A DNA stretch of 64,000 bases, taken from the NCBI GenBank assembly GCA_010093815.1, contig ML996565.1, one strand, 5' to 3'. The stretch comes from Pseudovirgaria hyperparasitica (lineage: Eukaryota). The position numbers were made by a program, and so were the translations under genes. Below, piece after piece: positions 47,330 through 50,533 of this stretch (the first letter of the stretch is position 1; the number at the start of each line of letters is the position of its first letter). A model generated the notes under the pieces. The model did no database searches and was not told the DNA's origin. It worked only from the letters and a program-made list of their open reading frames with translations.

Positions 47330-48729
47330 TTAGGCGTTTTTAGTCTCATTACCATCTGCTATGTCCTTCGTTGTGGGCATTGGTATTGGGCCACCCGGTG
47401 AGTCTGGTAGACGAGCAGTCAAAACTTCTACACCTGTCTCCGTGACGAGTAGAGTGTCCTCTTTGGGTTGTCAGCACTATGCTTAGCAGTTGATTCAAAT
47501 GCTACATACCGAATTGAGCAGCGAATTTGCCATCAACTGTAACGTTCGTCCAATTATCTGGCCAGTACACTTCCTTGGGTCTCCCCAGAGTGAGGATGGG
47601 CTCAATCGTAAAGGTCATGCCGGGTTTACAAGTTCCAACTGCCCTGTTCTTGGCGTAATGTGGAATCCATGGAGGGGGATGGAATTCAGTATTGATTCCA
47701 TGACCACCCCACGTCGCCATGACACTACAACCGCGCGATTTCGCATGCTTCTCGATGACGGGACCAAAGTCTCGGATTGGACAGCCTGGTTTCACCAGCT
47801 CGATGGCCTTTTGCAGACATTCCCTGGTCGTCTCGATCACGCGAACGGCGTCTGGGTTAGCCTTGGCTTTGTCACCGACATAGTACGTCTCATTCAGATC
47901 AGAGTGGTATCCACCATGATATAATGAGATATCAAGATTTATGATGTCACCATCCTCAAGTTTCCGGTGATCGGGTATTCCGTGGCATACTACTTCATTC
48001 GGAGAAGTACATAGGGACTTGGGGAAGCGGTTGTAATTTAGAGGTGAAGGGTAAGCCTATAGAGTTCATGTCAGAAGGTTAGCCATGTTCGTATGGTAAT
48101 AACACATACTTCTCGCTCCACGCAGGCGTTGTGGCAGATCTCGTCAAGGTAATCTGTTGTTACGCCTGGCTTGATCGCGGCAGCAGTAATGTCCAAGACT
48201 TCTCGACCAAGTTTTGAAACTTTTCGCATTGCTTCTTGACCTTTTGCGTCCAGGAGTTCAATTTTTGTTCTGTTCAGACGCCTCTCGGCTTTAGGAATGC
48301 CCGTCTCCGACCAGTCTGGGTGTGGTATGGTCTTCGGGACCTCGCGTTTTGCTGAAAGTGGGTAGACGGGGCGAACAGATCCGGTATAAGGATATGCTGG
48401 AAAAGGGTTCACGAAGCCTGTCACGGGGTCGGGCTCAGACACAACCCTTGGGGTAATGAGTTTGGAGAAGATACCATTTTGTAATTTGCCTTGCGCTGTC
48501 TTGTGCATAACCTTGTGTGTAGCCTGAGTGGAGTAGCGGCCATGATCAGTATGGGTTGCGTGTGTAGGGATGCAGAAATACCAACCCAGTTCCTCTTGAA
48601 GCAGTCCTGTGAGCAGAAGTAGCTGTCCTTTGTTCCCAATTTTAGGCAGCTCGGGCACTGGAGATCTCCAGCGTCATTCTCGCAGTCAGTCCCTAGACAC
48701 CGTCGCTTCGCGGGTGGTGGATCAGTCAT
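47330..48729 (-). CDS. Methionine aminopeptidase type 1 (atypical paralogue)
   Basis: N-terminal zinc finger (CLGTDC...LQCPSC...FCSQDCFKRNW), YPSPLNY, NEVVCHGIPD, INLDIS, HSDLNET, WGGHGINTEFHPPPWIPHY, FTIEP, AQFEDTLLVT; three introns. Confidence 0.93.
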
Positions 48730-49020
48730 GGTCGTAGGTCGCGCACACTTATCACGAAAGGAAGCGCTTGTAGATGGATGGTGTTTTGGTGTGATATAGA
48801 CGGCAAAAAGTAACACAGGCGTTGTAAGAAGAGCCCCACAGAGACACTAGTTATTTATTCATTGCGACGGGAACGGCGCATCGGCCGCTTAACCGTAAGT
48901 GGATTAGCCCACGTGGTGGGCCCCACAGGGTCTAATGAAGCACAGTACTCTAAACATAGGTCATAATCCGTGCTTCACTTCAACATATCGTAACCAAACA
49001 AGAGCACGACAGTCGTCAAC

Positions 49021-50533
49021 ATGGCTGCCAAATCGCCCGTTGACGATCTCCAGAAAATGAAACGTATGTCAGAACCATATCTATATTACAAAGAAATCAC
49101 CGACTGACGATTCCAGTCAATAAGGACGAAGCCACCAATCACAATGGCGGCGAGAACAAAGACACCAACGGCACGGTTGCAGATGTCGATGGGAATGATT
49201 CCGACGACGACGACGGAGACGAACAGAAGACTGGCAACATTCATGTAGCTTTAAATGAGGTTGCAGCCAAGAGGAAGAAGACCAAGAAAAAAAAGCCAAA
49301 GAAGAAGAAGGCTGCTACCGCGCAGACTGATCCACCCTCAGTCCTTATTTCCACACTCTTTCCCCACGGTACCTATCCCAAGGGTGAAGAAGTCGAATAC
49401 AAAGACGATAACCTCAATCGTATTACAAACGAAGAGAAGCGCCATCTCGATAATCTCGACCCTGCCTTCCTCTCAGATTACCGCCAGGCTGCTGAAACCC
49501 ATCGCCAAGTCCGCCAATGGGCGCAGAAAAATATCAAGCCAGGTCAGACACTCACCGAGATCGCAAACAGCATCGAGGACTCTGTACGCCGCCTTGTGGG
49601 TCATGATGGGCTCACCGAAGGTGACGCCATAAAAGCGGGCATGGGCTTTCCCACAGGCCTCAACCTCGACGACATCGCAGCCCACTACTCGCCCAACGTA
49701 GGCTGCAAGCAAGCGCTCGCGGCCACCAACGTTATGAAAGTTGACATCGGCGTGCACGTCAACGGGCGCATTGTCGACAGCGCATTCACCATGTCCTTCG
49801 ACCCCATGTACGACAACCTGCTCGCGGCCGTCAAAGATGCCACCAACACTGGCCTACGCGAAGCCGGCATCGACATGCGTCTGGGCGAGCTGGGCGGGTA
49901 CATTCAGGAAACCATGGAAAGCTACGAGTGCGAGATCAACGGCGTTACTTACCCTATCAAACCGATCCGGAATATTACCGGCCATAATATCCTACCGTAT
50001 AGCATACAGGGCACGAAGAGCGTGCCATCTGTCAAGACCAACGATATGACCAAGATGGAGGAAGGAGATGTGTTTGCCATTGAAACATTTGGCAGCACGG
50101 GAAACGGCCGGTGCGTTGAGCGCGGCGAGTGCTCGCATTACGCGCTGTGTGGCGACCCCCCGCAAGCAGATTTGCGGCTGAGCTCGGCGAAGAGTTTGCT
50201 CAGTGTGATTAAGAAGAACTTCGGAACTCTGCCGTGGTGTAGGCGCTATCTGGACCGGCTTGGGCAGGAGAAATACCTGCTCGGCGTACGTATTATCTCC
50301 ACACTGGATTACAAATGCAGGTGCTCACTCTCGCGCAGCTAAACAACCTCGTCAAGCAGGGCATCGTCCAGGACTATCCACCCTTGGTCGATAAGAAGGG
50401 TTCTTATACGGCCCAATTTGAGCATGTAAGCCAATGTACAACACAGACCTGAACTGGCGCGCTGACACTCGTTGAGACCGTTTTACTCCGACCTACCGTC
50501 AAGGAGATCATCAGCCGTGGCGATGACTACTAA
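49021..50533 (+). CDS. Methionine aminopeptidase type 2 (atypical paralogue)
   Basis: Acidic and poly-Lys N-terminus, [78 protein letters not shown]; three introns. Confidence 0.95.

Follow-up and report, generated by a model that had tools for sequence, protein, structure and literature searches.

A head-to-head pair of methionine aminopeptidase genes in Pseudovirgaria hyperparasitica related to the pairs of fumagillin and ovalicin clusters: a possible stand-alone resistance module

Introduction

Why should a fungus keep two methionine aminopeptidase (MetAP) genes of different classes head to head, with no toxin biosynthesis around them? The question is raised by a 64,000-nucleotide stretch of contig ML996565.1 (assembly GCA_010093815.1; hereafter the window) from Pseudovirgaria hyperparasitica, a Dothideomycete of the order Acrospermales and a hyperparasite of rusts, in which a MetAP1 gene and a MetAP2 gene diverge from each other between positions 47330 and 50533. 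Linked genes of the same two classes, fpaI and fpaII, occur in the fumagillin/pseurotin supercluster of Aspergillus fumigatus, where a protective role against the MetAP2 inhibitor has been proposed (excerpts of PMC7020470 and PMC12584730). Both MetAP genes of Metarhizium anisopliae are likewise listed within a pseurotin-related supercluster (PMC5088523, in part), and the product of the supercluster in M. robertsii is 12-hydroxy-ovalicin (PMC9600275, in part). We read the P. hyperparasitica locus, tentatively and at something short of an even chance, as a detached copy of this cluster-linked pair that would back up methionine excision against fumagillin- and ovalicin-class inhibitors.

Results

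Both genes are spliced and transcribed. They are complete, belong to different classes and diverge with start codons 291 bp apart, as the initial annotation had described, and their products contain every peptide string quoted there, including GHNILPYSI. The MetAP1 gene (47330..48729, minus strand) has five exons (48729-48586, 48523-48475, 48417-48110, 48056-47510 and 47460-47330) separated by canonical introns at 47461-47509, 48057-48109, 48418-48474 and 48524-48585; the MetAP2 gene (49021..50533, plus strand) has four exons (49021-49063, 49117-50285, 50339-50425 and 50477-50533) and canonical introns at 49064-49116, 50286-50338 and 50426-50476. Both models rest on the sequence, Pfam matches, an open spliced frame and splice joints in contigs X3 and X4, which come from two runs of a second sample. 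These contigs skip all seven GT..AG stretches and are judged RNA-derived solely on that ground; their depths were not taken as a ranking of expression. The DNA contigs X1 and X2 are colinear with the window, and none of the four runs shows a base difference from it. The public gene models depart from the RNA-derived contigs in two places: the MetAP1 model (411 amino acids) retains the in-frame 57-nt intron 48418-48474, and the MetAP2 model (417 amino acids) skips an acidic N-terminal block, near 49064-49116, that the RNA contig keeps.

The 392-residue MetAP1 product consists of an N-terminal zf-C6H2 finger (PF15801, 8.9e-18) and an M24 catalytic domain (Peptidase_M24, PF00557, 2.3e-34). An M24 pita-bread domain and this ribosome- and mRNA-associated finger are among the features of the eukaryotic cytosolic type 1 enzymes (MEROPS M24A, MAP1), and the protein has both. 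Its exon 3 is 100% identical to a public P. hyperparasitica protein (P0121, which like the MetAP2 match P0001 is encoded on a 3.44-Mb contig) and matches the yeast Map1 chain 8bqd_x at E 4.8e-71. The MetAP2 product, 451 amino acids long and 100% identical to public P. hyperparasitica protein P0001, carries acidic and lysine-rich N-terminal blocks ahead of a type-2 M24 domain (Peptidase_M24, 1.8e-21). This domain matches Chaetomium thermophilum MAP2 (8onz, E 1.1e-160) and human MetAP2 (1b6a, E 6.9e-108, human residues 82-430), aligning end to end with solved MAP2 structures, helical insert included.

The 291 bp between the two start codons (48730..49020) presumably act as a bidirectional promoter for both genes. 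RNA contigs stop at 48795 on the MetAP1 side and begin at 49011 on the MetAP2 side, leaving about 215 bp uncovered, with no RNA contig cover at all in the bin 48858-49004. Roughly midway between the two transcript ends, an inverted repeat read from the sequence (GCCCAC-GTG-GTGGGC, 6 nt with a 3-nt spacer, 48907..48921) overlaps the E-box CACGTG and is a candidate shared regulatory site.

Do these genes resemble the housekeeping enzymes of their classes? The initial annotation held that both depart from the usual motifs, which stands for MetAP1, with its WGGHG...PPPW and its place in a separate clade, and falls for MetAP2, whose motif is normal for the housekeeping MAP2 of Sordariomycetes (PDB 8ONZ). 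In an alignment of 18 proteins the window MetAP1 groups with those carrying TWGGHGINTEFHPPPWIPHY and EPILTLG, a lineage that we call W; Neurospora and other Sordariomycete MAP1 proteins instead have TY[CV]GHGIN..FHCPPN.PHY and EPMIALG, and yeast and human MAP1 are likewise of this Y type. The W hallmark of the window protein, WGGHGINTEFHPPPWIPHY, is encoded at 47655..47711 on the minus strand, as located by alignment. Among 104 named MetAP1 matches, 101 had a readable motif: WGGHG occurs in 81 of them (50 Sordariomycetes, 21 Eurotiomycetes, 6 Dothideomycetes, 3 Lecanoromycetes and 1 Leotiomycete), and YCGHG, YVGHG or IVGHG in the other 20, Sordariomycetes only. All but one of the 81 have the Pro-Trp form, the remaining one being the Hypoxylon cercidicola protein with WGGHGINTLFHGPPYVPHY.

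In the MetAP1 tree the W clade (82 rows) has support 100, and classes are scrambled inside it. A group of 11 rows (support 99) is sister to the window protein (81) and contains an Aspergillus lentulus protein, whose 90% cluster includes proteins of A. fumigatus and others of section Fumigati; the W proteins of that section sit 2-14 gene models from the cluster MetAP2. The terminal branch of the window MetAP1 measures 0.21 against a median of 0.12, and the two window proteins deviate at few near-invariant columns (2 of 172 and 1 of 154). This placement assigns the window MetAP1 to the sub-lineage of fpaI, apart from the widespread housekeeping type. Elsewhere in the W lineage, the protein of the Dothideomycete Lepidopterella palustris shares a cluster of at least 90% identity (that of P0136) with Pochonia, Metarhizium and Tolypocladium proteins, all Hypocreales, which hints at recent transfer between classes.

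MetAP2 proteins likewise fall into two lineages, A and B, each with support 100 in trees of 126 and of 73 rows. The window protein has the A-type motif, GH[NT]ILPYSIHGTK. The B-type motif, GHDI[QR]QW.IHG.K, was first met in metagenome loci and then assigned to named species by a search with the protein of one of them, the Helotiales-like locus L010. The members of lineage B come from Leotiomycetes, Lecanoromycetes, Dothideomycetes and Eurotiomycetes and group largely, though not strictly, by class, with no Sordariomycetes among the best 120 matches; the housekeeping MetAP2 of Dothideomycetes belongs here. Lineage A includes Afu8g00410 (MAP21_ASPFU), the fumagillin-cluster copy, while Afu2g01750, the housekeeping MetAP2 of A. 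fumigatus (PMC7020470, in part), is not among the best 120 matches to the window protein. Within A, a clade with support 99 (43 of the 126 rows and 37 of the 73) unites the window MetAP2 and Afu8g00410 and takes in all copies from outside the Sordariomycetes, that of Metarhizium and the second copies that several Xylariales have. In the 73-row tree the window protein pairs with that of Dendryphion nanum (91) on a long branch (0.34, median 0.12). Both window genes therefore fall with the sub-lineages of fpaI and fpaII when trees include the fumagillin-cluster copies, and the window MetAP2, too, is placed apart from the widespread housekeeping type.

The branching order inside lineage A does not follow taxonomy. 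Approximately unbiased (AU) tests on a 38-row subset under LG+F+G4, in which full searches were ended at 60 s and completed fast searches gave the same verdicts, rejected two groupings: the Sordariomycete A copies as one clade (p-AU 3e-7 or lower), and the non-Sordariomycete ones as one clade (p-AU 0.002 or lower). Given these rejections, the history of A requires some transfer between classes or deep hidden paralogy. A clade of the four Dothideomycete A copies was not rejected (p-AU 0.25-0.35). At the DNA level, orthologues with 82-84% protein identity agree at only about 74% of positions.

Are such copies additional to the housekeeping ones? A. fumigatus has two MetAP-1 and three MetAP-2 genes, with AFUA_6G07330 and AFUA_2G01750 outside the cluster (excerpts of PMC12584730 and PMC7020470); its two MetAP-1 genes, AFUA_6G07330 and the cluster gene fpaI, are 65% identical to each other (PMC12584730, in part), which makes the W protein of this species an additional copy. 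An A and a B MetAP2 occur together in Fulgogasparrea, in Polycauliona sp. 1 and in Rutstroemia, and Hypoxylon cercidicola has, besides its paired A copy, a second A copy that groups with those of other Hypoxylaceae. In every species whose copy number is visible, W or A copies coexist with housekeeping ones, and we infer that P. hyperparasitica, too, has housekeeping MetAP genes elsewhere in its genome. Our three homologue lists each hold the best 120 of several thousand matches; no P. hyperparasitica protein is among the best 120 for the lineage-B query from L010, which says little. Counts of M24 or PF00557 are absent from the supplement of the 101-Dothideomycetes paper.

The pairing itself recurs. 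Neighbours were judged by consecutive accession numbers or locus tags, which covers the 30 clusters looked up. Among these, 25 species from four classes have a W MetAP1 model next to an A MetAP2 model: two Dothideomycetes (Pseudovirgaria and Dothidotthia), four Eurotiomycetes (Penicillium angulare, in two assemblies, Aspergillus avenaceus, A. caelatus and A. pseudocaelatus), ten Sordariomycetes (Monosporascus sp. 5C6A, two Coniochaeta, Hypoxylon cercidicola, five Metarhizium and Pochonia) and nine Lecanoromycetes (six Xanthoria, Rusavskia and two Polycauliona). Because the same two lineages are neighbours in so many species, the pairing is not due to chance. The genes are linked and not adjacent in section Fumigati (at the distances given above), A. 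nomiae (10 models) and Diaporthe batatas (62), and unlinked by locus tags in Lomentospora and one A. tanneri assembly. The distribution of the neighbouring genes is patchy. We found no description in the literature of a free-standing or conserved neighbouring MetAP pair, though bioRxiv supplements could hold one.

The histories of the two genes agree in part: across 22 taxa they share 10 of 19 splits, a number matched by none of 2000 label shuffles. We rejected co-transfer as a conclusion from this agreement, since all shared splits lie within a genus or order and any two genes share splits at that level. A metagenome survey found no MetAP1 beside MetAP2 in any of 51 loci, 24 of which extend at least 2.8 kb upstream and just four of those 24 being of lineage A; a relaxed search with the MetAP1 N-terminus found nothing. 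One metagenome contig (L006:1-13080) encodes an A-lineage MetAP2 94.7% identical to a section Fumigati cluster copy, next to tyrosinase, NUDIX, metallo-beta-lactamase and TRI12-type pump genes, with no fma-like neighbour and no MetAP1 within 6 kb: another cluster-free A-lineage copy. We had considered this contig as a stand-in for the flanks of the fumagillin cluster and discarded it, as its neighbours are not fma genes; its tblastx comparison with the window is thus uninformative.

What surrounds the pair in P. hyperparasitica? Pfam scans covered 50 open reading frames (ORFs) of at least 130 amino acids at E<=1e-3 and 17 further or repeated ones at E<=1. They detected no polyketide synthase, nonribosomal peptide synthetase, terpene synthase, cytochrome P450, dioxygenase, methyltransferase or C6 regulator, although a cryptic membrane cyclase of the FmaA kind may have no Pfam model. 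The statement of the initial annotation that the 64 kb hold no polyketide synthase, terpene cyclase or P450 is thus borne out at the level of Pfam. Of the features of fpaI/fpaII-type pairs, the locus has the W and A lineages and physical linkage (291 bp), and its surroundings lack the Pfam families of the bergamotene pathway, with the same proviso for the cyclase.

By their Pfam domains, the other genes of the window include a Tel1/ATM-type kinase (TAN, HEAT, PI3/PI4-kinase and FATC; 25-9223, minus strand, running off the left end), Nup192, mitochondrial S6, the ribonucleotide reductase small subunit, an alcohol dehydrogenase, an FHA-RING protein, an M16 peptidase, an amidase, a CofD-like gene and an aldo-keto reductase. 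Directly downstream of MetAP2 lies a gene for a Shg1-like COMPASS subunit with a very long repeat region rich in Arg, Asp, Glu and Ser (50794-52764, minus strand). On the other side, ORFs between 39.8 and 46.7 kb have no Pfam domains or weak ones; the traces, HET (E 0.035) and an APH/kinase-like domain (E 8.6e-4), lie at 41357-44538, between the amidase gene and the pair, and these ORFs may be what had been called an accessory island with the pair at its edge. That description may hold in part: the ORFs are poor in domains, but the nearest one, a 371-residue ORF without a Pfam domain that is convergent with MetAP1 (45629-46744, plus strand), is no orphan, because it has 233 cluster representatives at E<=1e-3, the best at 52% identity. 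It belongs to a conserved family without assigned function.

Are the two enzymes likely to be active? In MetAP1, NLD, HSD, GHG and IEP align with metal-ligand positions of yeast and human MAP1, and the fifth ligand motif, AQFE, lies in exon 5; by alignment, all five ligands are retained, and we take them to be the counterparts of E. coli D97, D108, H171, E204 and E235, a numbering that PMC10724148 partly supports. Tyr168 and Met206 of the E. coli enzyme belong to the P1' subsite (PMC10724148, Table 2). By the GHG and EP registers, the W lineage would have tryptophan in place of the Tyr168 equivalent and EPI in place of EPM at the Met206 equivalent. MAP2 enzymes bind metal through D251, D262, H331, E364 and E459 in human numbering (PMC11673396, in part); in the window MetAP2 the first four are kept in the alignment to 1b6a, and E459 falls within AQFEHT in exon 3. 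In the same alignment, human His231, the residue that fumagillin modifies covalently (PMC11673396, in part), corresponds to His204 (codon CAC, 49683..49685, plus strand), and human His339 to Gln312 (CAG, 50007..50009, plus strand, with no base differences in four runs).

Of the two conserved histidines of MAP2 the window protein thus has that at 231 but not that at 339. That it belongs to the family is beyond doubt, but its full catalytic competence is open to question: among the 239 homologues whose motif can be read, 238 have histidine at the His339 equivalent, the window MetAP2 being the sole exception. Human His339 is presumably the equivalent of E. coli His178. The E. coli H178A enzyme loses activity 70-190 fold, and a His-to-Gln change at the equivalent site of Streptococcus is viable (PMC6761271, in part, citing Copik 2003). 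We compared 16 inhibitor-pocket or catalytic MetAP2 positions across 107 A and 118 B proteins. Position 384 is alanine in all but one protein per lineage, position 329 tells the lineages apart, B proteins having Asn and most A proteins Thr or Ser, and at 328 (Ile), 376 (Glu) and 339 (Gln) the window protein has unusual residues.

Discussion

The pair in P. hyperparasitica can be pictured as a detached copy of a module that recurs across species, made up of two accessory genes (MetAP1 of lineage W and MetAP2 of lineage A) that are transcribed away from the short region between them. In A. fumigatus and Metarhizium these lineages go together with the making of covalent MetAP2 inhibitors. As its likeliest role, the pair would supply a second set of enzymes for N-terminal methionine excision, active while fumagillin- or ovalicin-class epoxides block the housekeeping MetAP2. 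The type-1 enzyme lies intrinsically beyond the target range of the inhibitor, and its remodelled P1' pocket would let it bypass the block; the type-2 copy would add to the target or replace it. We favour a detached copy of the cluster-linked pair because of the lineage membership of both genes, the extra copies in other species, the neighbours in 25 species, the Metarhizium supercluster, the intact and transcribed state of the genes and the P1' changes of the W lineage. Co-regulation and a bypass or resistance role are what we infer from these observations, and a resistance role is plausible. The initial annotation had proposed a detached resistance module, and it gains from the right relatives, a conserved pair and a window free of detectable biosynthetic genes; it loses in that the MetAP2 motif is not deviant and acquisition is not shown.

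Could the scheme reach beyond this one genome? MetAP1-W and MetAP2-A may form a portable module of filamentous ascomycetes that sustains N-terminal methionine excision, whose genes have stayed adjacent in four classes and which travels with or without fumagillin and ovalicin clusters, and that serves non-producers, P. hyperparasitica among them, as a free-standing defence against the inhibitors of competitors. MetAP1-W, with its rebuilt P1' pocket, would then take over substrates of the MetAP2 type, and the Gln312 MetAP2, which retains the reactive histidine, might be a slow enzyme or a sacrificial sink for inhibitor. We regard this broader picture as possible but, on balance, doubtful.

Several observations weigh against a detached resistance pair. 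The reactive histidine is kept as His204 and is invariant in all 107 A-lineage and 118 B-lineage proteins, and 12 of the 16 pocket or catalytic positions are invariant in both lineages; together these mean that no signature of insensitivity is evident. Lineage A also includes a housekeeping enzyme, the MAP2 found bound to the ribosome in Chaetomium thermophilum (PDB 8ONZ), and because that enzyme carries the same motif, the motif is in itself no sign of resistance. Glutamine at the His339 position suggests, by analogy with E. coli H178A, a weakened enzyme. A MetAP1 is missing from all four metagenome loci of lineage A that extend 6 kb to either side, so unpaired A-lineage genes are common. The best 120 matches of the three lists include no second P. 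hyperparasitica MetAP, which carries low weight. Even in A. fumigatus the resistance role of fpaI and fpaII is still a hypothesis, described as 'not yet clear' (PMC7020470, in part). Housekeeping genes flank the pair, GC content is even across the window with no compositional shift, and no repeats or traces of mobile elements bound the pair, the direct and inverted repeats nearby all being coding repeats of the Shg1-like gene. Horizontal acquisition into P. hyperparasitica, as the initial annotation had suggested, is therefore not supported, with neither flanking repeats nor a compositional shift to point to and a clade of the Dothideomycete copies compatible with the data.

Might the pair have nothing to do with toxins? 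The two genes could be old paralogues with specialised substrates or a condition-specific role, under metal limitation or at a developmental stage, that are neighbours for the sake of co-expression and were captured by a few clusters. A wide distribution that includes nine lichen-forming Teloschistales would fit, as would the housekeeping use of the A-lineage motif in Chaetomium and the unrejected clade of four Dothideomycete copies. Several of the pair-bearing species of Aspergillus section Flavi are not known to be producers, which tells in the same direction. The P1' changes of the W lineage, moreover, point to substrate specificity and not to inhibitor binding (PMC10724148, in part). This explanation sits poorly with the patchy distribution, with a class topology in conflict with the species tree (by the two AU rejections), with the Dothideomycete W protein that clusters with Hypocreales at 90% identity or more, and with the fact that the contexts described in papers are inhibitor clusters only. 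We consider it unlikely, though to be taken seriously.

The pair could also serve a producer, either as unlinked self-protection for a fumagillin- or ovalicin-type cluster elsewhere in the genome or as a relic of one recently lost. In both documented cases the lineages of the pair sit in producers (PMC7020470, PMC9600275 and PMC5088523, each in part), and the long terminal branches of the two proteins, like the unique H312Q, could reflect constraint relaxed after the loss of a cluster. Yet the Pfam scans reveal no cluster gene within 47 kb on one side and 13 kb on the other, and both genes are intact, expressed and deviate at few near-invariant columns; a producer's pair is, to our minds, an improbable explanation, ranking below toxin-independent paralogues. 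That the two genes are the sole cytosolic MetAP1 and MetAP2 of P. hyperparasitica, the housekeeping lineages having been lost, would agree with their expression amid housekeeping genes and with the lack of a second copy among the best 120 matches, but it is very improbable, since that absence from lists drawn from several thousand matches weighs little, housekeeping copies are present in every species with visible copy number (PMC12584730, in part, for A. fumigatus) and glutamine at an otherwise invariant catalytic-site histidine would be surprising in a sole MetAP2.

What would a detached resistance pair mean? Duplicated drug targets in fungal gene clusters serve as beacons for new natural products and for target prediction, and the fumagillin/ovalicin class is used against microsporidia and has been studied for anti-angiogenic and anti-obesity leads. 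If the module proves self-contained, a cluster-free pair would be one of few fungal target-duplicate resistance cassettes in a likely non-producer, and an easy genomic marker of exposure to, or production of, compounds of this class. The W lineage would be a natural experiment in re-tuning the second-residue specificity of MetAP1, and the H312Q enzyme a natural variant at a catalytic-site histidine. Should the pair merely be a specialised set of paralogues, the case would be one of ordinary comparative genomics.

How does the locus compare with known systems? With the housekeeping enzymes, represented by yeast Map1 (8bqd), Chaetomium MAP2 (8ONZ) and human MetAP2 (1b6a/1boa), the window genes have in common the fold, the metal ligands, the zinc finger of MAP1 and the charged arm of MAP2. 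The motif of the Chaetomium enzyme equals that of lineage A, whereas the housekeeping MetAP2 of Dothideomycetes is of lineage B (GHDI[QR]QW.IH), in contrast to the A-lineage window protein with its H312Q; housekeeping MAP1 has YCGHG, C.PN and EPM where the window MetAP1 has WGGHG, PPPW and EPI. The Metarhizium/Pochonia supercluster for pseurotin and 12-hydroxy-ovalicin (mer-f3) contains the same two lineages as directly neighbouring models (KAK9437283/84, EFY96244/45 and OAQ62679/78), but there the pair is embedded in an inhibitor-making cluster and adjoins an alpha/beta hydrolase gene (PMC5088523 and PMC9600275, in part), whereas the window pair is cluster-free. The supercluster of A. fumigatus has, like the window, one physically linked gene per class, and fpaI (Afu8g00460, MetAP1) and fpaII (Afu8g00410, MetAP2-1) belong to the same W and A sub-lineages. 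In A. fumigatus, however, fumR, an EthD gene and psoF lie between the two genes, biosynthetic genes lie around them and the section Fumigati cluster copies of MetAP2 keep histidine at position 339; in P. hyperparasitica the genes stand head to head, with no cluster genes detected in 64 kb and glutamine at that position.

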